DNA of 63,904 bases from an uncultured Kiloniellales bacterium (GTDB lineage Bacteria; Actinomycetota; Acidimicrobiia; Spongiisociales; UBA5794). Location: assembly GCA_964196275.1 (NCBI GenBank), contig CAXMSN010000104.1:1-63904 (forward strand), read 5' to 3'. This document shows, piece by piece, positions 37,295-54,949 of the stretch (the first letter of the stretch is position 1; every line of letters begins with the position of its first letter). The notes beneath the pieces are model-generated. The model made no database searches, was not told the origin of the DNA, and saw only the letters and a list, made by a program, of their open reading frames with translations. Both the position numbers and the translations under genes were made by a program.

Positions 37295-40200
37295 TCAGTG
37301 ACCCAGCGCTATCTGCTTGAGCCTTCTTACCGCCACCATCCCGGCCGAGATGTCTTCGACGCCGTCTCTCTCGAGCCAGTGGAACAAGCGGTCCCTTCGA
37401 GGCAGAAGACGTGGGAAGCGGGCGTAGTGGGCGTCGAGCGATCCTTCGGTCTCACCGAGCACCATCGCAACGACATGCCTTCGCATCTGTTGGAGATCGT
37501 CTCGAAGCGATTCTGCGGCCAGACGTTCGAATGTCGTCGTGCCTGGCAGGTTCCGGATCTGGCGCTCGAGCCAGTCCACCTTGAACTCGTAGCTGACACG
37601 CGTGTAGATGGCGGCGACCTCCATCACATCACGACCGTGCTGATGTGCGAGTTCGATGATGTCTGGTCCCCTACGGAGCGAGTGCTGGAAGCCGTGGCGC
37701 TTCGCGATGTCCGGAGGCACACCGTTTGCGACCATGTGGGAGGCGGATGCTTCCGCTGGTTCCCTCCAGCCCTCGGGGTCGAGGCTCGGCATCCCCTCTG
37801 ACAGCGCAGCGAAGTCCGCACGCGAGAGGTCGATCTCCTCATCGATGGTTGTGGGAGTCACCGGGCGATTCAGATACCAACGGGTCACGGTCGATACCAA
37901 GCGGTCTATGTCACGGAGCATCTCGTGGTCGATGTCTGGGCCGATGGTTCCGACGAGGCCCTCAATCGCTGCCCACCGCTCACTCGCCCCGGTTATCTCT
38001 CTCGCGACTCGGTACGCACGCATGATTCGATTGGCAGGCGACCCGGTGAGGTGGCGCATCCTCGAGTAGAAGGTCGAGCCTTGCGAGTTCAGGGCCTGAT
38101 TCGCGACGATCGTCGCGATCAGCTCCCTCCGAAGGGGATGGACCCTGATCTCATCGGCGAACCGATCCGACACAGCCGTAGGGAAGTACCCGAGCAGGTC
38201 TGCTTCGAAATGGGGGTCATCGGGCAAGTCAGAATCCAGCAGAAGGTCCGTCAATGACCGTTTGGCATAGGCGAGTAGGACCGCCAGCTCAGGCCTCGTC
38301 ATGCCGCGGCCTTCCCGACCGCGCTGATTCATCTCTTCGGCGGAGGGCAAGAACTCGATCTCCCTGTCGAGGATTCCCTCACGCTCAAGCCGGTCGATGA
38401 GGTCCGCATACAGTTCGACGGTTCGATGTGACTCTGCCGACTCCTGCGAGAGAACCTGGGCTTGAAGGAAGTTGTCGTAGAGAATCGCCTCTACGACATC
38501 GTCGACCACACTCGCGATGATCTCGTCACGCTCAGCCCGATCGATCTTCCCTGATGCCTCGACGAGTCCAAGGAGGATCTTCAAATTCACCTCACGGTCG
38601 GATGCGTGCACGCCGCCCGAGTTGTCGATGAAGTCGGCGAATACGCGCCCGCCCCCCATGTCGAACTCGATTCGACCGCGCTGGGTGACACCGAGGTTTC
38701 CGCCCTCTCCTATCACGCGAGCGCCCACGTCTCGGCCGTTGATCCTGACGGAGTCATTGGAGCGATCCTGCACGAGCTCGGACGTCTCCGCCCTCGACTT
38801 GACGTACGTGCCGATACCGCCGTTCCACAGCAGGTCGGCTGGCGCTTTGAGGATCAGCTTGATCAGCTCGCTCGGTCTCGCTGATTCGACGGGTGTACCA
38901 AGGACCTCACGCATCTCGGGTGTGAGTTCGATGCTCTTGGCTGCTCGGTCGAACACGCCGCCCCCGGCCGAGATGAGATCAGCGTTGTAGTCGAGCCATG
39001 AAGATCTGGGTAACAAACTGATGCGCATTCTCTCGTCCCAGGACGCAGCAGGGTCGGGATCCGGGTCGAAGAAGATGTTCCTGTGGTCGAAGGCTGCAAT
39101 GAGCTTCATGTGTTTGGACCGAAGCAGACCGTTCCCGAACACGTCACCTGACATGTCGCCGATCCCGACGACGGTGATCTCCTCGGCCTCTACATCGACG
39201 CCCAGGTCGAAGAAGTGCCGCCGCACAGACTCCCAGGCGCCCCGAGCGGTGATTCCAAGTGCCTTGTGGTCGTAACCGGCCGACCCTCCCGATGCGAACG
39301 CGTCGTCGAGCCAGAAGCCGTACTCGGCCGCGATCTCGTTCGCCGTATCGGAGAACGACGCGGTTCCTTTGTCGGCAGCGACCACCAGATACGGATCTGG
39401 TGCATCGTGTGCCACAACAGAGTCAGGCGTGACGATCTCGTCCCCGACACGATTGTCCGAAACGTCGAGCAGCCCTCTGATGAACAGCCGGTATGCATCT
39501 TGGACTTCCTCGTACGAAGGCCGAGGGGCGTCGGCTGGTCGGCGTAGAACGAAACCGCCCTTCGCTCCCGTCGGGACGATGACAGCGTTCTTCGTCATCT
39601 GGGCCTTCATCAGCCCGAGAACCTCAGTTCGGTAGTCCTCCCGGCGATCGGACCATCGGATGCCGCCGCGCGCAACGGCGCCGCCTCGAAGGTGGACGCC
39701 TTCGACATCTGTCGCATAGACGTAGATCTCGTGCAGAGGTTTGGGTTCTGGCATCTCAGGAACGTCTGCGGATGCGAACTTGAGCGCCAGAGAGGAACGG
39801 CCTTCGACCCTGACGTTCGTTCGTTCGGTTGCAAGCACGAGTCCGAAGAAGCCTCTCAGGATCCGATCGTCGTCGAGCGACGAGACAGCGTCAAGGCCGT
39901 GCCGGATCTGCTTGGCGATCGCCTTCTCTCGTTCTTCGCTGTGAGCCTCGTCGAACCTCGCCTCGAACAGCCTCACGAGAGCCTCGGCGATCTTGGGGTG
40001 AGCGGTAAGCGTGTCGTTGACGTAGCCGATGGAGAACGACGGAGTCACAAGGCGCCAGTAGTTCCGATAGGCCCTGAGGATCGAGAGTTCGCCGTACGCC
40101 AACTCGGTTCCGAGCAGGAGCCGATGGAGCGCATCCGACTCCGCGCCGCCGGTGAGAACGGCTTCGATCGCAGTCGCGATGCGGTCCCCCACGGTCGCGA

Positions 40201-42094
40201 TATCGACCTGATTTCCCTCGGAAGTGAGAACACCGAAATCGTGGATGTAGGTTTGCTCTTCGCTACGGAGTCGCGTCGGTACCTCCTCGACGACGACCAG
40301 GCCGAGATGCTCGATCAACGGCACGACGGAAGACAGGTTGAGCTTTCCCGAGTTCCGGTAGACCGTGATCCTGGTCAGCCATTCAGATGCGGCGGGCGCC
40401 TTCGCCTCGTCGGCCTCGTTCTGCAGTCCCACAACGAGATCGGCGCCGGTCGATGCCAGCCGGTCAAGGCTGAGGATGTCTCCAACAACGAGCGCCAAGG
40501 CTGTCGAGGCCTTGTAATAGTCAGGGAACCCCGGCGTCCAGCGATCTGCAAGGCGGTTCGCCTCAGAGTCTCCAACCGCCTTGGCGAGTTCGCCGACAAC
40601 CTTGTCTTCCCACGTTCGCGCAAGTGCAAGCACCTCGACTTCGAGTTGTGAGACGTCAACCTCGACGGGCCCGGACCCCTCGGTCCAGACCGAGAAGTGG
40701 ATTCGCGCATCTCCCGACTCTGCGAGCGACAGTCGGTAGTCGACGGTGAGGCCTCCGTACGCATCCTTGAAGAGTTGCTGCAGTTCCTGGCGCAGCACCG
40801 AGTTGAACCGGTCACGCGGAACCGTGACGAGGATGCTGACAGATCTCCGGAGCGCATCGCGACGAACGAACAGTCGGACGCGTTCAGAATCTTCTGCGAC
40901 GATCAGCGCGCTGAGCGTGTCACCGAGATCCTCGATAGTGCCGGCGAACAGATCGTCTTTGGGGAAGCTGTCGAAGAGCTGGACCATCGACTTGTAGTCA
41001 TGAGAACCCTCGATGAGATCCTGATCCTTGAGGATCTGCTCGAGCTTGCGTCGCAGCACGGGAATCTCGCTGGCTGCTGCCATATAGGCCTTTGACGTGA
41101 ACAGCCCAATGAGCCTGTGTTCGGTCACGGTCCTGCCGTCATCGCCGGCTTTCCGGACACCCACGTATTCCATCCGAGCGCCGCGATGGACAGTGGCTTT
41201 CTGGTTGGTCTTCGTGATGACAACCAGGTCTCCGCCTCTGTATCGATCCCGGACGTACGGCGGCAGGTCAGAGAGCAACACGGCCTCGGGCTCGAACCCG
41301 TTGTCGTGGAGAATGCCCAATCCGCTTCCGGTTCTCGCCAGAACTGCCTGGTCACCGTTCTGATCCACGATGTCGTACTCGCGATATCCGAGGAACACGA
41401 AGTTGTCGTCGAGTAGCCACCGCAAGAACTCCACCGACTCCGAGATCTCGTCGAAGTGGAAGTACGTGTCTCCCGACTTCGCAGCCTCGACCATCTTGGG
41501 GACCATCCTTCGCATTGGCTCGAAGTCGCGCACGACCGAGGCAAGGTCGCTCAGTGTGTCGCGGATGTCGCTGGTCAGTTCCGCCTTGGCGTCCGAGTCG
41601 AGCCTGCGGTCGAGTTCGAAATGCTGGACGCTTACGACCCTGCCTGAGGACCGGGCCGAGTCGATACCGATCAGGAAGCCTGTCTCGTCTCTCGTCGTCC
41701 CGACGAGTGGGTGGAGATGCCGTTCGATCCCAACTCCGGACCGGCTGACAGCGAGAGCCATCGAGTCGACGAGGAACGGCCGGTCATCAACGACGACCTG
41801 GACAACCGATCCAGTGGTCTCGTATCCGCACTCGTTAAGCGACGGGTCGAACACGCGGATCGCCATCTCCTCGAGGCCTCGGCTCTGCACGAACAAGAAG
41901 AGGTCTGAGATCTCGGCGTACAACTGGTCGATCGGAATGTCCGGGAGATCGATGTTCGGAATGCGCCTGATGTAGAGGCGGGCAAAGGCCGAGAGCATCG
42001 CCCGAGTTTCATCGGGTACGTCGGCAGGAATCGTTGCGACCAGTTGGTCGACGACGGACGGTTCAGGCTTGACGGGCGAGCCGTTTCCGGTCAT
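37295..42094 (-). CDS. gdhB: Large NAD-specific glutamate dehydrogenase (1599 aa)
   Basis: VARGGIRWSDR, GLMKAQ, VPTGAKGG, DPYLVVAADKGTA, GDMSGDVFGNG, GEGGNLG; TAGCCT-N7-ATG. Confidence 0.95.
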   Translation of the reverse strand: MTGNGSPVKPEPSVVDQLVATIPADVPDETRAMLSAFARLYIRRIPNIDLPDIPIDQLYAEISDLFLFVQSRGLEEMAIRVFDPSLNECGYETTGSVVQVVVDDRPFLVDSMALAVSRSGVGIERHLHPLVGTTRDETGFLIGIDSARSSGRVVSVQHFELDRRLDSDAKAELTSDIRDTLSDLASVVRDFEPMRRMVPKMVEAAKSGDTYFHFDEISESVEFLRWLLDDNFVFLGYREYDIVDQNGDQAVLARTGSGLGILHDNGFEPEAVLLSDLPPYVRDRYRGGDLVVITKTNQKATVHRGARMEYVGVRKAGDDGRTVTEHRLIGLFTSKAYMAAASEIPVLRRKLEQILKDQDLIEGSHDYKSMVQLFDSFPKDDLFAGTIEDLGDTLSALIVAEDSERVRLFVRRDALRRSVSILVTVPRDRFNSVLRQELQQLFKDAYGGLTVDYRLSLAESGDARIHFSVWTEGSGPVEVDVSQLEVEVLALARTWEDKVVGELAKAVGDSEANRLADRWTPGFPDYYKASTALALVVGDILSLDRLASTGADLVVGLQNEADEAKAPAASEWLTRITVYRNSGKLNLSSVVPLIEHLGLVVVEEVPTRLRSEEQTYIHDFGVLTSEGNQVDIATVGDRIATAIEAVLTGGAESDALHRLLLGTELAYGELSILRAYRNYWRLVTPSFSIGYVNDTLTAHPKIAEALVRLFEARFDEAHSEEREKAIAKQIRHGLDAVSSLDDDRILRGFFGLVLATERTNVRVEGRSSLALKFASADVPEMPEPKPLHEIYVYATDVEGVHLRGGAVARGGIRWSDRREDYRTEVLGLMKAQMTKNAVIVPTGAKGGFVLRRPADAPRPSYEEVQDAYRLFIRGLLDVSDNRVGDEIVTPDSVVAHDAPDPYLVVAADKGTASFSDTANEIAAEYGFWLDDAFASGGSAGYDHKALGITARGAWESVRRHFFDLGVDVEAEEITVVGIGDMSGDVFGNGLLRSKHMKLIAAFDHRNIFFDPDPDPAASWDERMRISLLPRSSWLDYNADLISAGGGVFDRAAKSIELTPEMREVLGTPVESARPSELIKLILKAPADLLWNGGIGTYVKSRAETSELVQDRSNDSVRINGRDVGARVIGEGGNLGVTQRGRIEFDMGGGRVFADFIDNSGGVHASDREVNLKILLGLVEASGKIDRAERDEIIASVVDDVVEAILYDNFLQAQVLSQESAESHRTVELYADLIDRLEREGILDREIEFLPSAEEMNQRGREGRGMTRPELAVLLAYAKRSLTDLLLDSDLPDDPHFEADLLGYFPTAVSDRFADEIRVHPLRRELIATIVANQALNSQGSTFYSRMRHLTGSPANRIMRAYRVAREITGASERWAAIEGLVGTIGPDIDHEMLRDIDRLVSTVTRWYLNRPVTPTTIDEEIDLSRADFAALSEGMPSLDPEGWREPAEASASHMVANGVPPDIAKRHGFQHSLRRGPDIIELAHQHGRDVMEVAAIYTRVSYEFKVDWLERQIRNLPGTTTFERLAAESLRDDLQQMRRHVVAMVLGETEGSLDAHYARFPRLLPRRDRLFHWLERDGVEDISAGMVAVRRLKQIALGH

Positions 42095-42194
42095 GCACGC
42101 GAGGCTAGACGGGTCCTGATCAACAACGCGGCGATTTCGGGGATTGTCTTCGCCCACAGATATACGATGATGCGTCCAGAGTCGAAAGGGACCC

Positions 42195-42974
42195 ATGGCC
42201 AACCCACCGCTCCAGAAGCAATTCGGCGCCCTCCCTGAGGTCGGTGCGGGATCAGACGCGGCGCTCCAGGGCGCCCAAACGCCCGCTGGATTTGGAGCAG
42301 ACGATCCGATGACCATCGGCGGGACCTCAGCGAAGACAGCGTTCCTGCTGATCCTCGTCCTCGGTGCTGGCGCCTGGGGGTGGACGCTTGTCGATCCCGT
42401 CACTGGTGGCACGGGGCTTCCCGGCTGGTGGTTCTTCCTGGCGATCGGCGTGTTCGGCCTTGCGATACTGACTGCGTTCAAGCCGCACCTTGCGATCATC
42501 ACCGGACCCCTGTACGCCTTGTCTATGGGCGTCGCCATCGGGACGATCAGCCGTCTCTACGAATCGCAATTCGAAGGGATCGTTCTTCAAGCGATCATGG
42601 CCACGGCCGCCGTGTTCTTCGTAATGCTGGTCCTGTTCGTGACCCGGACGATCAAGGTGACCAATCGACTGCGCGGCGTCATCATCGGAGCAACGCTCGG
42701 GATCATGCTGTTCTATCTCGCCAGCTTCGTGCTATCGCTCTTCAGCACCAGCATCCCGCTTGTTTGGGATAGCGGCCCCGTCGGAATCGGTTTCAGCGTG
42801 CTGATCGTCGGGATCGCTGCATTCAACCTGATGCTCGACTTCGACCTGATCGAACGTGGCGTACAGGCCAGGGCCCCGAAGTCCATGGAGTGGTTCGGTG
42901 CGTTCGCCCTGATGGTCACCATCATCTGGCTCTACATAGAGATCCTCAGACTGATCGGCAAAGTCCGGAACTAG
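42195..42974 (+). CDS. Bax inhibitor-1/YccA family membrane protein
   Basis: MT..GT..KT, GIVLQA, LMLDFD, TIIWLYIEILR. Confidence 0.85.
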   Translation: MANPPLQKQFGALPEVGAGSDAALQGAQTPAGFGADDPMTIGGTSAKTAFLLILVLGAGAWGWTLVDPVTGGTGLPGWWFFLAIGVFGLAILTAFKPHLAIITGPLYALSMGVAIGTISRLYESQFEGIVLQAIMATAAVFFVMLVLFVTRTIKVTNRLRGVIIGATLGIMLFYLASFVLSLFSTSIPLVWDSGPVGIGFSVLIVGIAAFNLMLDFDLIERGVQARAPKSMEWFGAFALMVTIIWLYIEILRLIGKVRN

Positions 42975-43356: not shown

Positions 43357-43533
43357 GTGGTTACTCCGGAAAAGAAACAGATCCCGCGCTGCCGGCGGAA
43401 TCCTCGATCCACAAATGCTATGTACGTTTCTCCCATACGGACCGAATCCGGGAGCACGGCCAGGTCGCCAGTTCTGCTCCGTAGTCCATGGTCCGGAGCG
43501 AGGCGGAGCCGAGCCACCACTACCTTTCCCACC

Positions 43534-44535
43534 ATGCAGTCACTCATCCATCTCTTCCGCATGTGGATTGCGGTCTCCCTCGCTGTGGCATCACGACTGT
43601 TCCGCAGACTCCTCCTCGGTCCCACCCTGCCGTCCTGGAGTTGGCGGACAGACGTCACCGTCGCAGGAGCCAGAGCGGCGATCGCGTCGGCAGCGACCCA
43701 ACCGGACAACCCTCTGATCACTGAGTTCGGGGCCAGGGTCCGGGCGCCGATCCCCATCAAGATGTGGGGCAAGGTCAGGGTCAACAGGACGAAACTCGGT
43801 GGCCTTCCCGTCGATCGCTACATCCGGCTTGACGATGCAACCGATCGGGCAACGATGCTCTACTTCCACGGCGGGGGCTATGTCTTCGGCAATCCAGGGA
43901 CGCACAGGCAGCACCTCTCGAGACTGGCATATGAGACAGGCACGAACGCGATCGCACCGCAGTACCGATTGGCCCCGGAGCACAAGTACCCCGCCGCCGT
44001 TGAGGACGCTCTGACCGCATACAACGCGATGCTCGCTTCGGGAACACAACCTGAGCGCATCGTCGTGGCAGGCGACTCTGCCGGTGGAGGCCTCGCTCTC
44101 GCATTGCTCCTCACGATCCGCGAACGGGGCCTCCCGATGTCCGGAGGTGCGATGCTGTTCTCCCCCTACACAGACCTCACGCACTCCTCGTACACGATCA
44201 CGACCAACGCCGACACCGACTATCTCCCGGCCGCCGAACTGGCGCAGCCGAACCACTACTACGCGGACGCAGACCAGCTGACGGATCCCATGGTCTCACC
44301 GGTGTTCGCCGACCTCACAGGCCTCCCGCCGATGCTCGTGCTCGCTGGCGGCGCCGAGATGATCCTCGACGACTCTGTGCGGCTTGTAGCCAACGCCAAA
44401 CGAGACGGTGTTGACACCACGCTGGTGGTGGAAGAGGAAATGATGCATGTCTGGCCAGCGTTGGTTCCATGGGAACCGGCAACCGAGAGGGCTCTGGTCG
44501 CGGCGTCTGAGTGGGTCGATACGCTCTACGCCTGA
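43534..44535 (+). CDS. Alpha/beta hydrolase (HSL-family esterase)
   Basis: YFHGGGY, YRLAPEH, GDSAGG, HVW; TACCTT-N7-ATG. Confidence 0.9.
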   Translation: MQSLIHLFRMWIAVSLAVASRLFRRLLLGPTLPSWSWRTDVTVAGARAAIASAATQPDNPLITEFGARVRAPIPIKMWGKVRVNRTKLGGLPVDRYIRLDDATDRATMLYFHGGGYVFGNPGTHRQHLSRLAYETGTNAIAPQYRLAPEHKYPAAVEDALTAYNAMLASGTQPERIVVAGDSAGGGLALALLLTIRERGLPMSGGAMLFSPYTDLTHSSYTITTNADTDYLPAAELAQPNHYYADADQLTDPMVSPVFADLTGLPPMLVLAGGAEMILDDSVRLVANAKRDGVDTTLVVEEEMMHVWPALVPWEPATERALVAASEWVDTLYA

Positions 44536-44614
44536 GACAGCCACAGAGACCCCTGGCACCGCAGCATTCGCCTAGTATCGGGTCACCCACAGAGGAGCCG
44601 TTCTGACCAGCGAG

Positions 44615-45853
44615 ATGAACCCCGCAGAGATGACACCTGCCGAGATCGCAGAGGTACAGAGAGCCTGGTACCGCTTCTGGCTCCCGCGGATCACGATCGG
44701 GTCGATTGTGGCCATGGCGGTCGTGTTCGGCGGTCAGTGGGTCTTCACCAGCACCACCGACTTCCTGATGACGATGATCCTCTCATTCTTCATCGCCTTT
44801 GCGATGCTCCCCGCCGTTGACTACCTCTCGGGCCGAGGATGGAAGCGAGGCCTCGCAACGGCAACTGTGATGTTCGTCGGCATGCTCATGGCGATCCTCT
44901 TCGCTTTCGCCATGGCACAGCTCGTCGTCGATCAGATCATCCAGATGATCGGGAAGTCATCGGGCTACGCGCAGCAGCTGATCGACTGGGTCAACTCAAC
45001 CTTCGATCAGAACTATACGATTGACGACGTCGTCGTACAGCTCGGTGGCTACGAAGACATCGCCGTCAAGGCTGGCAAGACGCTGATTTCTGGCATTCTT
45101 GGCTTCACCAGTTCGATCCTTGGTCTCATCTTCAAGGCGCTAACGATCTCCCTGTTCGTGTTCTATATCCTTGCCGACTTCCCGAAGATGCGAGCAGCGT
45201 TGCTTCACAACCTGCGTCCGTCCGCGCAGCTCCATGTCGACACGTTCCTGTCGATCACCGTGCAGAAGGTCGGTGGATACATCTACAGCCGGCTCGTCCT
45301 TGCGGCATTTTCGGCGGCTTACCACTTCGTAGTCTTCAAGATGCTCGGCCTGCCATACGCCTTGGCGATGGCCCTGTGGGTCGGCCTCGTAAGCCAGTTC
45401 GTCCCAAGCGTCGGCACATATCTCGCTGGAGTCGTCCCGTTCTTCATCGCACTGGCCGAAGGGGGGGCATCCACTGCCATCTGGGTCCTTATCGCGGTCA
45501 CGATCTATCAGCAGATCGAGAACTACCTGTTGTCACCGAAGATCACGAAGAACACGATGGACCTGCACCCTGCGATCGCGTTCGGATCAGCGATGATCGG
45601 TGCGGCGCTCCTTGGGGCCATAGGTGCCCTGCTTGCGCTTCCGGTCGCCGCCACTATCACGGCACTCGTCCAGACCTATGCGGATGACTACGAAATCATC
45701 GAGAACGAGCTCATCGAATCGCCGGACGAGTATTCCGCCAGGATGCAGGCGATCAGGGACGCCAAGGATCGCAAGCGGGCAGAGCGCAAGGTGAAGCTCG
45801 GATTCAAGCCGAAGACCGACGACGACGAATCGGACACATCGGACGACGAGTGA
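44615..45853 (+). CDS. AI-2E family transporter
   Basis: FVPSVG, YQQIENYLLSP, DLHPAIA, GALLALP. Confidence 0.88.
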   Translation: MNPAEMTPAEIAEVQRAWYRFWLPRITIGSIVAMAVVFGGQWVFTSTTDFLMTMILSFFIAFAMLPAVDYLSGRGWKRGLATATVMFVGMLMAILFAFAMAQLVVDQIIQMIGKSSGYAQQLIDWVNSTFDQNYTIDDVVVQLGGYEDIAVKAGKTLISGILGFTSSILGLIFKALTISLFVFYILADFPKMRAALLHNLRPSAQLHVDTFLSITVQKVGGYIYSRLVLAAFSAAYHFVVFKMLGLPYALAMALWVGLVSQFVPSVGTYLAGVVPFFIALAEGGASTAIWVLIAVTIYQQIENYLLSPKITKNTMDLHPAIAFGSAMIGAALLGAIGALLALPVAATITALVQTYADDYEIIENELIESPDEYSARMQAIRDAKDRKRAERKVKLGFKPKTDDDESDTSDDE

Positions 45854-46845
45854 GCGATGATGCCGACGCATCGGTAACAGGGGTCGGAGAGACGTTCGAC
45901 GAGTTCCGGCGATCGTTCTCGTACGGCTCTCGGGGAAACCTGAACTTCAAGTTCATGAAGTCGATGTCTGAGGCCGATGCCGCAGCCTTCCTCGCCACCG
46001 TTCTTCAGCAGCTCGGCGACGCGTACGACACCGGAGATGTCTCGCCCATGATCGAGACGGCGATCGAAGCCCAGATCGCTGGGTACGCCCCAAAGCCGGC
46101 CGACATGCCTCCCATGTTCGAGTTCGACAGTGGCCCGTTTGCGCCTGCGAAGACTCAGGTCAGCGAAGCGACGATCGGGCTCCTGACGACGTCAGGGCAT
46201 TTCCTCGAAGACGACGACCCTGAGCCCGAAGGCATGACGCAGGCTGAAGCGGTCGATCGCATCTCTGAGTCGCTCAGGGGGACGCCGACCCTCTCAGAGA
46301 TCCCGCGTACGTCGGATGTTGAATCGATCACTGTGAGGCACGGGGGATACGACATCACCTCTGCCGCGATCGACCCGAACGTCAGTTTCCCGATAGACCG
46401 CATGAACGAACTGGAGCGAGACGGAACGATCGGTGCATTGGCATCGACCTACTTCTCGTTTCCCGGAGCTACCTCCCAGGGTCGGCTCAAGCGCGAACTC
46501 GATGCATGGATCGATCGCATCAAGGCCGAAAATCTCGACTACATGCTGCTGGTTCCCGTCTGACCTGTCTGCCACGTGTCGGTCGGGCACGTAGCACGAG
46601 GCCTCGAAGAGGCCGGGATCGCAACGACGACGATCATGGTCGAGGCTTTCCGCCATCGGGCGGAACAGATGGTGGTCCCGCGTGCGGTGATCACACGCTT
46701 CCCGATGGGAAGGCCTCTCGGGGCGCCGCACGACACCGACCGACATCTCGACGTGATGCGCATGGCGTTCAGCCTCCTCGAGACCGCGACCGAATCAGGA
46801 ACCATCGTCAGCTATCCGCAGGCGTATCGGGTCCAGACCGCCTAG
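45850..46845 (+). CDS. PrdB/GrdB-like selenoprotein B (331 aa, Sec238 encoded by TGA 46561-46563)
   Basis: LLTTSGH, HGGYD, DPNVSFPIDR upstream; in-frame LLVPV-U-PVCHVSVGHVARGLEEAGI...PRAV...FPMG..LGAPH downstream; SECIS-like hairpin. Confidence 0.9.
46570..46596 (+). promoter_or_regulatory. Bacterial SECIS-like hairpin
   Basis: TGC-C-ACGTGTC [GGTCG] GGCACGT-A-GCA: 10 pairs (one G-U), one mismatch; G-leading loop starts 18 nt after the TGA. Confidence 0.75.
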
Positions 46846-50284: not shown

Positions 50285-53200
50285 CTACTCGGTCAGGTGT
50301 GAGGCGAGTTCCTTGTCGAACCGTTCTCTGATCCCTTTGATCCGATCTGACATCGGGACCTCCTCTTCTTCGAACGCCTCCAACGCCGCGTTCTGGGAGA
50401 GGTAGTCGATGTTGGTCACACCGGACTTCGACTGGAGCATCCTCCACGACTTCCTCCGCTCTACGCAGTACAGCACGAGCTGGCGTGACAGCGACATCGC
50501 CCTGACGTTGCCCTTCGCATCCTCCACCTCGATGTACACACCGAAGTCTGGGACGTAGGAACGATGTGTCGGATCAAGCACGTTCCTCGCAACCACATCT
50601 GCCTGCTTCACGAGCAGCAGTATGTCGTCGAGGAAGATGAGGCCGTCGGTGGTCTTCGTTGGCTTGAGATGGCGCCGGAACCTCGCCTCGGTCGACGCGA
50701 AGTGCGCAACCGTGTACGCAAATGTCCTGTCCGACTGCTTGGACGTAATCTGTGTCCAGTCGCGGTCACGGTTGGCGTTGCCCGACACGTCGAGCGCCTC
50801 CTGGTAAGTCTCCCCAAGCTGAGGGTTGTGGACGAACTGCGGCATTGCCCGCGAGTCCCGCACGAGCCCGGCCTGCACCGTTGCGACATCGTCGGCCACG
50901 CCGTGCTCAGGCTGGCAGGTCGTGAACGACTGAATGAACGAAGTGCCCCGGTAGTCGAGTGCGTCAAGGATCGCCTTGTAGAACTGAGCCGTGTTGGCCA
51001 TCGACACCTGCGCCACGTAGGCGGAGCCGTGACCGGAGATGAACGACTCGGCGACACCCTTCTTCTCGGTCATCTTTCCCTCAGAGGCGACGCCGAACTG
51101 GTTCATGTCGCCGCCACCAGGCATCGGTGTCGAGTCTGAGTTCTGACCGCCTGTATTCGAGTACACCTGCGTATCAAGCATCAGCAGTTTGACATTCGGC
51201 CGGTTCTGCAGGACGACTTTCGATACGTTCTGGTAGCCGATATCTCCCATACCGCCATCACCACCGATGGCCCAAGCCTTCGGTAACTCCCGGATCTCAC
51301 GCGGCGTCATGGCGTTGTCTGTCATGTGCGTCATCTCGAAGAACTCGGCTTCTGAGATTCCAACGCCGAGCATCAGGTAGTCGGCCATCCGCTCCGGGAT
51401 GACCGATCGCTTGGCGTGGTCCATGATGAAGCTCTCACCGAGGAGCCACGTGATCGTTGCACCGTCTTGGAACAACGAGTTCATCCACGGATAGGGATGG
51501 GGGTTGTTCGGTGGCGTGGAGCCGTAGACCGTGTTACACCCGGTGTGGGCACCCATCGCCATGACGGACATCCCCTTCGGGACGGTCCCGTCGAGCGCCT
51601 GAAGGTCTCTGTGGTTGAAGGCGTCCTGGCGCATGGTGACGGTCAGGGCCTCGATGATCTGCTCGTCGCTGATCTCGCCATGGCTTGCGATGCGAACCGC
51701 TGTGTCCTCGATCGTTTCTCCACCGAGTCCGAGGATTGAATGTGCGACGAGCATCCGGAGCCGTTCGTACGACGGCATGTCAAGAGCCTTGATCTCACCA
51801 AGCATCTTCATGCCGTGGTCCTGGAGTTCGAGCGCTTTGTTGTCGAGACGGTCTGCCTTTGCGTGGTACATCGGACGCATGTAGGCCTCTGTCAGCGATG
51901 CAACTGCATGCAGAACTGACTTCTCACCACACCCTGCGCATGCGCCATCGCCGCTGACGAGAGCCTCGTAATTGGACCGCACCATCAGATGGTTCTTCAG
52001 GTGAGCAGCAGCGGATTCCATCGGATCGTCCGGGTCGAATCGGCCGAGGTACTTCTCGGGAGTATCAGGGAGCAGGTCGATGAAGTTCGTACCTGAAACG
52101 TGGTCAGCGTTGAGCTGAGGCGTTTCCTGAGCCATCTCAAGTGCTTCCCAAGGACATTCGAGAACGCACTCGGCACAGCCCTTGCAGAGGTCCGAGACCA
52201 TGATCGCAAAGAGGCCGCCCTCGCCGGGGCTACTCCTCTCAAGAGAGCGGAACAGGTGGGAGGTCTTCGTATATGCGAACGGCACGCGATCGAACAGTTG
52301 CATGAACTCGTCCTTGGCCGTGTCGCTCACACCATCGATCGCGTCGACTTCGGGCTTGAGGACATCGACGAACGGAACCGCTGCCTTCTCTTTGTCCTTG
52401 TCCTTGACGATATCGAGAAGCTTCTTGCGCACAGATGTCTCGAGATCGGGAAGGACGTCGACCATCTTCGCCCGCTCGGCCGGGTCAAGGATGTAGCCGC
52501 GTGCAGCGGTACCGAACACGACGTTGAAGTCCTGCGCGACGTTGGGAAGCGCGGTGTCGGGGCAGGCCGTGATGCAGTCCATGCACCCAGTGCAGTTCTC
52601 TGCGATCCATATCGGTGTCTCTCGCCGCGCAACGTATTTGCTCGCCGTCCGGCCAGATCCCGCTGCCATCATCGAAACCGACGAAAGCGGAGTCGATGGC
52701 TGGTCGTAGCCGAGTCCTGCCTTGAATTCCTTGTTGAACGTGGACACAAGAGTGAGAGGGATGCGAACCTCCTGAACCGCCGGGGCCACCGCAGCAGGGA
52801 TCTCGACGCTGCACGAGTCACATGGCGCAAGGGACGGGAGGCGCATGCTCGAACGGTCGGCTTCGCCAGGATCGCCGTACGGGATCTCCTGGATCTGCTC
52901 GTAGCCAGCGGTCATCACCGTCATGTTCGACTCGACGACGGCATCACCGAAGCGGCCGAACTTCTTGACGTACTGTGCGTGCACGATCTCGCGGTAGCGG
53001 TCGTCTGATACGTCGTACTCCTCGAGGAAACCTGACACCCTGAAGAACGCTCCGAGGAACGCATTGCCCTGCATCCTGAGCTGGAGTTCTGGCCTGTCTG
53101 TCGCTTCCCTAGCGATCCTGAAGCCGGGGAGCGTTACGACCCTTACCTTCTTGTCGATGATCTCTTGCCGGTACTGCGGCGGGATCCTCTGCCACACCGT

Positions 53201-54949
53201 GTCGGGGTCCTCCTCGGACTCCCACACAAAGGTTCCTCCTTGGTTCATCCCTTCGAGGGGGTTCGCATGGGTGAAGATCTTCGGATCTGAGCACAACACC
53301 ACATCCACATGGTGGAGGTCGCAGTTCGGGTGGATCCGCTCCGGGGCGGCAACCAGGAAGTAGGAGGTCGGTGCGCCCTTCTTCGCCGACCCGTACTTGG
53401 GGTTGGCAGAGACGTGGATGATCTCCTTCGGCCGTCCGTACTCGTCGACCTCGTCTTGGTGCTCGAGCAGATCGTCTCCGACCGCACCGATCACCTCGGA
53501 CAGGTTCTTACCCGTCGTGATCATCCCCCAGCCGCCGATCGAGTGGAACCTTACGGCTATGGCACCTTCGGGTAGGAGGGAGGGTGTCCTGTCTGCGACC
53601 ACGGCATACGGATGATCGATGCCGAGGGTGAAGTAGGTCTCTCCGTCTGCAACGGTGCTGCCGTCCTGGCGGGCCCGCTGACCGGTTGCGTACTCGTAGG
53701 CGCCGATGATGGCCTCTGGCCTGAAGTCCCTGCTCCCAAGCCCGTAGGAGCCAGACAGGATGAGCGGGGTGTCGGCATCCGTCAGACCCTGGATGTCGGA
53801 TTCGAAGCCTATGAATCCCACCTCAAGTGCCTTGTTCAGCGTCGCTCTGATCTCACGGGTCAGCGGGTTATCTCCCGACATCGACTCGTCGGTCCGCTCA
53901 AGAACGATCACCCTCTTCTTGCCAGCAAGGGCGGCTACGACGTCAGCCTCAGGGAACGGCCTGATGACGTTGATATGAAGCGAGCCAACACTCGCGCCGT
54001 CTTCAGCACGCATGTAATCGACGGCGGCCTCGATGTTCTCCGCCGCAGAGCCGAGCGAAACGAAGACCGTCTCGGCGTCGTCGGTCTTGTACTTCGATAC
54101 GAACCCGTAGTTACGTCCGGTGAGTTCCTCGAAGTCACGGTACGCCGCATCGAGCATCGGGAGGATCTCCTCGGAGAAGTGGTTCCTCCTGGCCAGAATG
54201 CCATTCATGTAGTGCTCCTGGTTCTGAACAGGCCCAAGAAGCATTGGGTTCTTCAGATCCATCATCACTGGCACCCGCCGACGCGTGGGACCGAACAGGA
54301 CCTGTTGGGCCTCAGTCGGTGTGTCGATGATGTCGTCGTGCGAGCCGAGGTACTCACGTAGGAGTTCAGCCTCGTGCTTGTAGAACGTGCGCTCGAGGTG
54401 GGAAGTCAGAAAGCCGTCTTGGATGTTCATCCCAGGGTTCAGCGAAAGCTCGGTCACCCTGCGAAGGATCAAAGCCTGATCCGCAGCCTGCTGCGCATCC
54501 TTGGCGAAGAGCATGATCCAGCCAGTGTCAAGCGCTGAGTACACATCGTCGTGGCCACAGTGAACGTTGAGCGCATGCTTGGTAAGCGCACGGGCGGCGA
54601 CCTCGAGAACCATGGTCGAGAGCTTCCCCGGTGCGTGGTAATACTGCTCGAGCCCGTAGACGATTCCTTGGCCAGAGGTGAAGTTGACGGTCCTGTGACC
54701 TGTCATCGAAGCGGCGATCGCCCCGCCTTGTGCTGCGTGCTCACCCTCAGCTTCGATCGCGATCTTCGAGTTGCCGAAAACGTCGAGAACACCCTCAGCG
54801 AAAGAGAGTTGGTAGTTCTCGCCCATCTCGGTGGACGGTGTGATCGGGTAGAAGACACCGGCCTGAGTGATCCGGGCCTCTGTGTGATAGGCGACGAGTT
54901 GGTTCCCGTTGGTTGTGACCCTGATACCGGGATATTTGGGTGCACCCAT
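50285..54949 (-). CDS. por: Single-chain pyruvate:ferredoxin/flavodoxin oxidoreductase, long form (1554 aa)
   Basis: YPITPS, GLGSRDF, CTGCMDCITACP, CKGCAECVLECP, GACAGCGE, GGDGG..DIG, LDTQVYSNTGGQ. Confidence 0.9.
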   Translation of the reverse strand: MGAPKYPGIRVTTNGNQLVAYHTEARITQAGVFYPITPSTEMGENYQLSFAEGVLDVFGNSKIAIEAEGEHAAQGGAIAASMTGHRTVNFTSGQGIVYGLEQYYHAPGKLSTMVLEVAARALTKHALNVHCGHDDVYSALDTGWIMLFAKDAQQAADQALILRRVTELSLNPGMNIQDGFLTSHLERTFYKHEAELLREYLGSHDDIIDTPTEAQQVLFGPTRRRVPVMMDLKNPMLLGPVQNQEHYMNGILARRNHFSEEILPMLDAAYRDFEELTGRNYGFVSKYKTDDAETVFVSLGSAAENIEAAVDYMRAEDGASVGSLHINVIRPFPEADVVAALAGKKRVIVLERTDESMSGDNPLTREIRATLNKALEVGFIGFESDIQGLTDADTPLILSGSYGLGSRDFRPEAIIGAYEYATGQRARQDGSTVADGETYFTLGIDHPYAVVADRTPSLLPEGAIAVRFHSIGGWGMITTGKNLSEVIGAVGDDLLEHQDEVDEYGRPKEIIHVSANPKYGSAKKGAPTSYFLVAAPERIHPNCDLHHVDVVLCSDPKIFTHANPLEGMNQGGTFVWESEEDPDTVWQRIPPQYRQEIIDKKVRVVTLPGFRIAREATDRPELQLRMQGNAFLGAFFRVSGFLEEYDVSDDRYREIVHAQYVKKFGRFGDAVVESNMTVMTAGYEQIQEIPYGDPGEADRSSMRLPSLAPCDSCSVEIPAAVAPAVQEVRIPLTLVSTFNKEFKAGLGYDQPSTPLSSVSMMAAGSGRTASKYVARRETPIWIAENCTGCMDCITACPDTALPNVAQDFNVVFGTAARGYILDPAERAKMVDVLPDLETSVRKKLLDIVKDKDKEKAAVPFVDVLKPEVDAIDGVSDTAKDEFMQLFDRVPFAYTKTSHLFRSLERSSPGEGGLFAIMVSDLCKGCAECVLECPWEALEMAQETPQLNADHVSGTNFIDLLPDTPEKYLGRFDPDDPMESAAAHLKNHLMVRSNYEALVSGDGACAGCGEKSVLHAVASLTEAYMRPMYHAKADRLDNKALELQDHGMKMLGEIKALDMPSYERLRMLVAHSILGLGGETIEDTAVRIASHGEISDEQIIEALTVTMRQDAFNHRDLQALDGTVPKGMSVMAMGAHTGCNTVYGSTPPNNPHPYPWMNSLFQDGATITWLLGESFIMDHAKRSVIPERMADYLMLGVGISEAEFFEMTHMTDNAMTPREIRELPKAWAIGGDGGMGDIGYQNVSKVVLQNRPNVKLLMLDTQVYSNTGGQNSDSTPMPGGGDMNQFGVASEGKMTEKKGVAESFISGHGSAYVAQVSMANTAQFYKAILDALDYRGTSFIQSFTTCQPEHGVADDVATVQAGLVRDSRAMPQFVHNPQLGETYQEALDVSGNANRDRDWTQITSKQSDRTFAYTVAHFASTEARFRRHLKPTKTTDGLIFLDDILLLVKQADVVARNVLDPTHRSYVPDFGVYIEVEDAKGNVRAMSLSRQLVLYCVERRKSWRMLQSKSGVTNIDYLSQNAALEAFEEEEVPMSDRIKGIRERFDKELASHLTE

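Follow-up and report, generated by a model that had tools for sequence, protein, structure and literature searches.

What might a selenoprotein related to the D-proline reductase subunit PrdB do in a bacterium in which neither the pyruvoyl proprotein PrdA/GrdE nor the GrdA protein is found? The question is raised by a gene on a contig of 63,904 nucleotides (nt; CAXMSN010000104.1) from an uncultured bacterium of the class Acidimicrobiia, a stretch that as a whole is called the window below. An initial annotation of the window had described an orphan selenoprotein B with an additional N-terminal domain, coupled to an adjacent AI-2E family transporter, and had proposed the arrangement as a candidate for an undescribed system. 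The comparisons presented here bear out the orphan and the additional domain and speak against the coupling. There is reason to think, at better than even confidence, that its product is a PrdB-like selenoprotein complete in itself, in which a U-x-x-C selenol/thiol redox pair acts on a substrate, with no fixed partner protein and no coupling to a transporter. The clade to which it belongs is widespread in Acidimicrobiia, with scattered occurrences in the rest of the phylum (Actinomycetota, by named homologues). The protein adds a new member to a catalogued kind of selenoprotein; what is added here are controls for the absence of partners, a subfamily tree and the N-terminal domain.

The selenocysteine codon

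Judged by its conservation, the gene is a genuine selenoprotein gene, and the UGA at 46561 is decoded as selenocysteine (Sec) by way of a conserved selenocysteine insertion sequence (SECIS) hairpin. When 45850–46845 is translated with the TGA at 46561–46563 decoded, the motif around Sec238 is VPVUPVCHV, and the Cys-containing homologues P0029, P0071 and P0093 read VPVCPVCHVS where the window protein reads VPVUPVCHVS. Relatives were found in 72 of 301 sampled genomes of the class, with one single in-frame TGA in nearly every match. That same lone codon recurs in nearly all of the ∼90 matches from the class and of the ∼80 metagenome loci, and the frame downstream of it is conserved. The GTG at 45850 is the sole in-frame start upstream of the conserved N-terminal motif, and it overlaps the stop codon of the AI-2E transporter gene as GTGA.

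The hairpin that follows the codon covaries. Across 92 distinct sequences its stem is paired in 97.5 per cent of cells, and four of the seven pairs show compensatory double changes (24 cells), for example from C-G to U-A and from G-C to A-U. None of 500 shuffles equalled the observed values, and slid controls collapsed. A scan of the window against Rfam matched no family, a route by which bacterial SECIS elements are not detectable. The machinery needed for decoding, selABCD, is complete in the genome: the assembly (2.09 Mb in 139 contigs, 82.75 per cent complete) carries the tRNA-Sec gene selC at C67:37391-37485, adjacent selA and selB genes at C112:931-4021, both scoring over their cut-offs, and selD at C67:61546-62472 (402.7 bits). 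This selD gene has an in-frame TGA of its own, and SelD is therefore probably itself a selenoprotein here.

Gene callers divide the window gene into open reading frames (ORFs) of 237 and 89 residues, which might be taken to mean that the locus is an artefact or a pseudogene, either two unrelated ORFs or one gene broken by a nonsense codon. The recurrence of the same TGA across relatives, the Cys found in homologues, the conserved downstream frame, the covarying SECIS and the complete Sec machinery all run counter to this; conservation rules the possibility out, and we give it practically no credence. Public gene callers have treated the rest of the family alike, with more than 200 homologues of which nearly all are cut to ∼234–240 residues at the Sec codon, leaving a separate ORF of ∼90 residues. 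Because the callers truncate at this codon, the database entries for the family are systematically split.

Relationship to PrdB and GrdB

The part of the protein that carries the redox motif belongs to the Pfam family GRDB (PF07355), which matches residues 88–234 at model positions 207–344 with 47.5 bits (cut-off 22). All other matches lie below their cut-offs: the PrdB equivalog model TIGR04483 (103.1 bits, cut-off 300), the GrdF model (61.5 bits, cut-off 800), the GrdH model (54 bits, cut-off 775) and the selenoprotein-B subfamily model TIGR01918 (44.8 bits, cut-off 65.45). A contig scan with the single window protein returned three distant PrdB loci of Bacillota only, and these were used as canonical references; the reference PrdB comes from the Filifactoraceae locus L002, which has a prdC-prdA-prdB arrangement. 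Residues 104–330 of the window protein align with residues 30–241 of this PrdB at 34 per cent identity (BLASTP, E 2e-34), Sec on Sec, and the two proteins have the motifs U-x-x-C-H, HGGYD, DxN, FxFxG and PMG in common. The core is thus homologous to PrdB of the Clostridium sticklandii and C. difficile type along the whole length of the latter. Because the alignment begins at window residue 104, ∼100 N-terminal residues are extra in comparison with a genuine PrdB; the Pfam and GrdF alignments start at residue 88, in agreement with the ∼90 additional residues first described.

In a maximum-likelihood tree built from the core region, with GrdB as outgroup, the window protein falls in a clade of proteins that bear the extension (type A), with a Shimodaira–Hasegawa-like approximate likelihood ratio test (SH-aLRT) support of 99. 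The orphan types A to D of the class cluster together (86) beside canonical PrdB, which is their nearest relative in the tree. Type-A orthologues with 45–89 per cent identity over residues ∼10–330 were found in 15 genomes and ∼80 metagenome loci, and the window gene is the only GRDB match in its own assembly. The resemblance to PrdB is therefore one of core sequence and tree position; unlike PrdB, the window protein has the extra N-terminal residues, falls in a separate clade and misses the TIGR04483 cut-off, its gene has neither PrdA, PrdC nor a prd operon beside it, and its hosts are not Stickland-fermenting Bacillota.

GrdB, GrdF and GrdH (TIGR01917, TIGR01918, NF040794 and NF040795) are members of the same Pfam family with Sec at the equivalent position, and the C-terminal half of GrdF and GrdH aligns with window residues 88–319. 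The window protein differs in that the ∼200-residue N-terminal region of GrdB is not present (positions 1–206 of the GRDB model are unmatched), and in that no GrdE, GrdA or GrdC accompanies it. The canonical GrdB proteins of the same class occupy a long separate branch with 100 per cent support, and their Sec motif, TUGTGTRCG, is not that of the window protein.

At least three further orphan subfamilies of GRDB/PrdB-like selenoproteins occur in the class (loci L026–L039), all with an in-frame TGA. Type B consists of the PrdB core and a C-terminal extension of ∼230 residues, with the motif TPVUPLCTRT; type C has ∼310 residues and the motif UPVCHQS, and type D ∼260 residues and the motif PGUPMCHRS. 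Genomes with types B to D are without GrdE, except for one (G182) in which GrdE and GrdA are unlinked to the type-C gene.

Absence of the partner subunits

In the Stickland reductases the selenoprotein B subunit does not stand alone. The initial annotation had noted that no prdA/grdE, grdA, prdC or trxB gene lies near the window gene, and the scan agrees: trxB, prdC and grd-like genes are lacking among the ∼20 flanking ORFs compared with Pfam, several of which have no Pfam match. No PrdC, PrdD or PrdE was seen among these ORFs or among 227 neighbour proteins of ∼79 homologous loci, PrdC not having been searched genome-wide.

The absence extends to whole genomes. PF09338 (GrdE/PrdA) and PF04723 (GrdA) are both absent from the 2.09-Mb assembly, and the orphan status claimed for the gene stands. 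Since that assembly is incomplete (82.75 per cent), 15 other orthologue-bearing genomes of 94–100 per cent completeness were checked as well; in the 16 genomes with a full-length orthologue, the window's own included, each of the two families is found 0 times. As a positive control, PF09338 and PF04723 were both detected in 7 other genomes among the 301 searched, one of them of the same genus, and none of these 7 has a type-A orthologue: weak matches (E ∼1e-11) in G231 and G295 come only from the GrdB genes of the grd clusters themselves, and G182 has the unlinked type-C relative already mentioned. By this genomic evidence the family is always without the pyruvoyl proprotein PrdA/GrdE and GrdA, and would function independently of them.

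These results bear on the possibility that a classical Stickland-type reductase, Prd or Grd, includes the window protein as a subunit and that the partner subunits are encoded elsewhere, perhaps in the 17 per cent of the genome that is unassembled. The incompleteness of the assembly would allow for it, as would the full grd cluster of a genome of the same genus (G142). However, that genome and the other grd-bearing ones have no type-A orthologue, the 15 nearly complete or complete orthologue genomes lack GrdE/PrdA and GrdA, and the canonical GrdB of the class forms its own clade with its own Sec motif, while the window protein misses the cut-offs of all equivalog hidden Markov models. A Stickland subunit with distant partners is accordingly held to be highly improbable.

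The grd-bearing genomes deserve mention in their own right. PF09338 occurs together with a Sec-containing GrdA in 7 of the 301 class genomes, among them one of the same genus, and full grd clusters were annotated at two loci. The first, in G142 (locus L140, G142:C1:466000-481000), consists of a GrdE/G-like proprotein, a Sec-containing GrdB, the GrdC beta subunit and a Sec-containing GrdA, with a betaine-aldehyde dehydrogenase gene adjoining; the second, in G231, has a proprotein, GrdB, the GrdC beta subunit and thioredoxin. No published report of a glycine, sarcosine or betaine reductase in Acidimicrobiia was found in the literature searched. The premise that PrdB and GrdB work only in multi-subunit reductases of anaerobic Bacillota was overstated, given that complete grd clusters exist in this class.

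The N-terminal extension and the predicted structure

The extension is specific to the family. It was found 124 times among 1.84 billion representative proteins, always at the N-terminus of a member of this family and in proteins of at most 328 residues. Among 65 full-length sequences, residues S22, F23, Y25, R28, K34, Q75 and Y79 are invariant, and most of these belong to a loop motif whose sequence in the window is SFSYGSRGNLNFKF. Residues 1–87 match no Pfam family, comparison of the extension with PrdA by hhalign gave a probability of 0.08 and thus no similarity, and a sequence search of the PDB found no solved structure.

An AlphaFold2 (AF2) model built from a 46-sequence alignment predicts with confidence a single compact chain (predicted local distance difference test, pLDDT, 86.3; predicted template modelling score, pTM, 0.87). 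In the extension it places helices at residues 16–21, 31–38, 41–61 and 65–79, and it renders the invariant stretch at residues 21–30 as a loop of lower confidence (pLDDT 63). Against the PDB, a Foldseek search with the model returned a best E of 0.076 and template modelling (TM) scores of at most 0.27.

An additional domain that is always fused to a PrdB-like core invites the idea that it takes the place of a missing partner, as the initial annotation had suggested. In one form of this idea, the protein would be a single-chain analogue of PrdA and PrdB together, with the N-terminal domain activating the substrate in cis, conceivably through an autocatalytic carbonyl at Ser22, for the cleavage of C-N or C-X bonds. 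The domain is family-specific and invariably fused, the invariance of S22, F23, Y25, R28 and K34 and the low pLDDT of their loop are as expected of a functional loop, and the motifs on the substrate side of PrdB are kept. On the other hand, the extension has no detectable similarity to PrdA/GrdE or to any Pfam family, the residue preceding Ser22 varies, and the sequence contains none of the known self-cleavage motifs. The replacement of a partner by this domain finds no support in the sequence comparisons and is speculation; we consider a single-chain analogue of this kind quite unlikely.

A related proposal, to which we attach little probability as well, is that the orphan clade is a single-polypeptide reductive-cleavage enzyme in which the N-terminal domain has assumed the substrate-binding or activating role of PrdA/GrdE. 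If this were true, aerobic or marine Actinomycetota would own a selenium-dependent C-X bond reductase, with a substrate that is possibly metalloid or derived from an osmolyte, and what has been tallied in ocean selenoproteomes as ‘proline reductase’ over 20 years would be a different enzyme.

Genomic neighbourhood

Sequence and Pfam matches confirm that the selenoprotein gene overlaps the stop of an AI-2E transporter gene, which in turn lies behind an esterase gene of the hormone-sensitive lipase (HSL) type (Table 1). The overlap of the transporter stop with the selenoprotein start suggests co-transcription in the lineage of the window. The esterase scores 238 bits against the GESAG-HSL subfamily model, which is below the cut-off. 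Its ORF is open from a GTG at 43357, 59 codons before the ATG at 43534; the ATG is the likely start and the GTG probably spurious, because orthologues of 330–339 residues align from about residue 46–60.

Table 1. Positions of the features discussed (window coordinates, except in the last three rows)
Feature	Position	Strand	Evidence and remarks
Family-IV (HSL-type) esterase gene	43534..44535	+	Abhydrolase_3, 183.7 bits; HGGG and GDSAG motifs
AI-2E family transporter gene	44615..45853	+	PF01594, 187 bits
PrdB-like stand-alone selenoprotein gene (predicted)	45850..46845	+	331 residues, GTG start, TAG stop; translated with TGA as U
Family-specific N-terminal extension, residues 1–∼101	45850..46152	+	Four predicted helices and invariant loop S22-F23-x-Y25-x-x-R28...K34
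PrdB-homologous core, residues 104–330	46159..46842	+	Motifs RHGGYD, DxN, FSFxG, U-x-x-C-H and PMGRPLG; BLASTP against L002 PrdB
UGA codon for selenocysteine U238 in the redox motif U238-P-V-C241	46561..46563	+	Alignment with Cys; conservation in relatives
SECIS hairpin (predicted)	46570..46596	+	Upper stem 46574-46580 / 46586-46592, loop GGUCG 46581-46585, lower stem 46570-46572 / 46594-46596
MerA-like oxidoreductase gene	L103:1768-3285	Same as selenoprotein gene	NF004991
MerA-like oxidoreductase gene	L123:2808-4454	Same as selenoprotein gene	NF004991
MerA-like oxidoreductase gene	L124:3213-4859	Same as selenoprotein gene	NF004991

The neighbourhood was compared over ∼79 loci (14 genome regions, 3 assembly contigs and 80 metagenome contigs). 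An AI-2E gene adjoins the selenoprotein gene in two of them, the window and a relative with 89 per cent identity (L060). An esterase gene precedes the selenoprotein gene in six or seven loci, all within a single ten-member subclade that is marked by a synteny running from glutamate dehydrogenase (GDH) to UvrD; other members of that subclade have no esterase, and it is missing from related loci such as L040 and L005. In two complete or near-complete genomes of the same family and in several contigs the order is GDH, esterase, selenoprotein and UvrD, with no transporter, and the gap between esterase and selenoprotein gene in such syntenic relatives is 44–49 nt (esterase and selenoprotein gene are direct neighbours in L007, L008, L042 and L066). 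Since the esterase abuts the selenoprotein gene directly in these relatives, the transporter is a lineage-specific insertion. A Pfam tally of 78 immediate and 149 further neighbours at the ∼79 loci revealed no dominant family and no conserved neighbour.

It could still be argued that the esterase, the AI-2E transporter and the selenoprotein constitute a system of their own, in which the selenoprotein reduces or cleaves whatever substrate the transporter moves. In favour of this are the shared direction of the three genes, their spacing (an 80-nt gap and the GTGA overlap) and the recurrence of the layout in L060. The rarity of the AI-2E adjacency, the insertion of the transporter and the confinement of the esterase to one subclade, with related loci such as L040 and L005 lacking it, make such a system very unlikely. 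The transporter/esterase operon as a conserved unit was rejected on comparison of 18 and then of ∼79 loci. The three genes, the inserted transporter among them, are probably co-transcribed in this genome as a local arrangement devoid of functional coupling. The N-terminal extension marks a clade of its own. The linkage to the transporter, on whose conservation the initial annotation had made its reading depend, is not conserved, and for the transporter-coupled system the result is negative.

The wider surroundings of the gene are shared with related genomes. On the minus strand of the window, positions 37295-42538 encode a 1747-residue NAD-specific glutamate dehydrogenase and positions 50285-54949 a 1554-residue fused pyruvate/2-oxoacid:ferredoxin oxidoreductase-like protein, both syntenic in those genomes, and a UvrD helicase is among the flanking genes.

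Redox and metalloid genes at other loci

Although no neighbour is conserved, a few kinds recur. The arsenite methyltransferase ArsM (NF008823, 295 bits; cut-off 263) is encoded immediately upstream and on the same strand at L005, L041 and L064, and within ∼5 kb of the selenoprotein gene at four further loci. At L005 (L005:4750-7011) genes for an ArsR-type helix–turn–helix regulator, ArsM and the selenoprotein stand in a row, ArsM 66 nt upstream; at L041 and L064 the distance is 10–32 nt. A MerA-like flavin adenine dinucleotide (FAD) disulfide oxidoreductase (NF004991, up to 768 bits) is encoded 10–61 nt upstream on the same strand at L103, L123 and L124, an AhpD-like protein is encoded upstream at L073, and AhpD-like proteins and EamA and MFS exporters recur among the neighbours. 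These are the most frequent neighbours, yet each is present at a small minority of loci. The ArsM genes offer a possible lead to a metalloid-related function, and the MerA-like flavoprotein is a candidate electron donor.

It is conceivable, then, that the protein is a detoxification reductase for metalloids or electrophiles, for example for pentavalent (methyl)arsenicals or for selenium species, in concert with ArsM and with the MerA-like protein as its source of electrons. The upstream ArsM genes with the regulator at L005, the upstream MerA-like genes and the recurrent AhpD-like proteins and exporters speak for such a function. Each of these associations, however, is seen at fewer than 10–20 per cent of the loci with enough flanking sequence and none occurs in the window; the neighbours vary from locus to locus, and some associations may stem from the shared ancestry of closely related contigs. 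We judge this function improbable, if less so than the other alternatives; the occasional ArsM, MerA-like and AhpD-like neighbours weakly tilt a guess toward metalloid or electrophile stress.

A proposed mechanism

For the self-contained selenoprotein favoured here, a mechanism may be sketched from the redox motif. Sec238 and Cys241 would form a two-electron redox centre that cycles between the selenol/thiol and the selenenylsulfide, and in doing so the pair could reduce, or reductively cleave, a small-molecule or protein substrate. The oxidised selenenylsulfide might then be re-reduced by a general disulfide-reductase system, either thioredoxin or, in some genomes, the MerA-like flavoprotein encoded alongside. 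The N-terminal helical domain with its S22/Y25/R28/K34 loop would be an integral part of the enzyme, either as a substrate-binding lid or as an oligomerisation module. A selenol/thiol pair two residues apart is also seen in the UxxC and CxxU selenoproteins of the thioredoxin (Trx) fold (Trx-like, peroxiredoxin-like or Prx-like, DsbA-like and AhpD-like), and CxxC Cys-homologues of the window protein exist. The resemblance is confined to the motif and does not extend to the fold: no solved structure matches the AF2 model significantly, and Pfam detects no Trx-like domain.

Several considerations weigh against this self-contained redox enzyme. Its redox role is deduced from the U-x-x-C motif and the homology to PrdB alone, and the members of the family are known from sequence; the chemistry of PrdB itself needs a pyruvoyl partner. 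Redox-related neighbours occur in a minority of loci only, and the genome that carries the window gene is just 82.75 per cent complete. Because Foldseek shows no similar solved structure, the fold offers no functional hint.

Implications for PrdB-like selenoproteins

Proteins of this kind have been counted for two decades. In the Sargasso Sea survey, ‘proline reductase PrdB’ (pfam07355, UxxC) was among the most abundant selenoprotein families with 42 sequences (Zhang and Gladyshev 2005; PMC1088965, Table 3), and the Global Ocean Sampling survey, in which it likewise ranked among the most abundant, recorded 235 ‘PrdB’ sequences in 38 samples (Zhang and Gladyshev 2008; PMC2398784, Table 2). Both place these pfam07355 proteins with the UxxC motif among the selenoproteins of thiol-dependent redox function (PMC1088965; PMC2398784), and with such counts reaching back to 2005 the window gene does not represent an undescribed kind. 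The ocean proteins have pfam07355, UxxC and a strong SECIS in common with the window gene, a comparison made by family description only. The surveys counted and labelled them, and described no N-terminal domain, orphan status or subfamily structure (PMC1088965; PMC2398784). A 2026 review treats PrdB solely as a subunit of a clostridial enzyme (PMC13188914).

In the literature searched, no publication was found that deals with what PrdB-like or GrdB-like homologues in Actinomycetota do, how their domains are arranged or whether they are orphans. The ocean entries come from aerobic surface-ocean samples, in which Stickland fermentation is not expected. To our knowledge, nobody has asked how a subunit of a Stickland enzyme could work in the oxic surface ocean.

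The whole-genome controls now identify at least one large clade of PrdB-like selenoproteins that never co-occurs with the pyruvoyl partner or GrdA. This clade has its own N-terminal domain and stands apart from the genuine grd systems of the same bacterial class; for these reasons the label ‘D-proline reductase PrdB’ that some annotation sources (JGI, for example) attach to such genes is probably wrong. The interest of the family lies in this combination: an abundant selenoprotein, probably mis-annotated as proline reductase, would be a widespread selenoenzyme that awaits a function.

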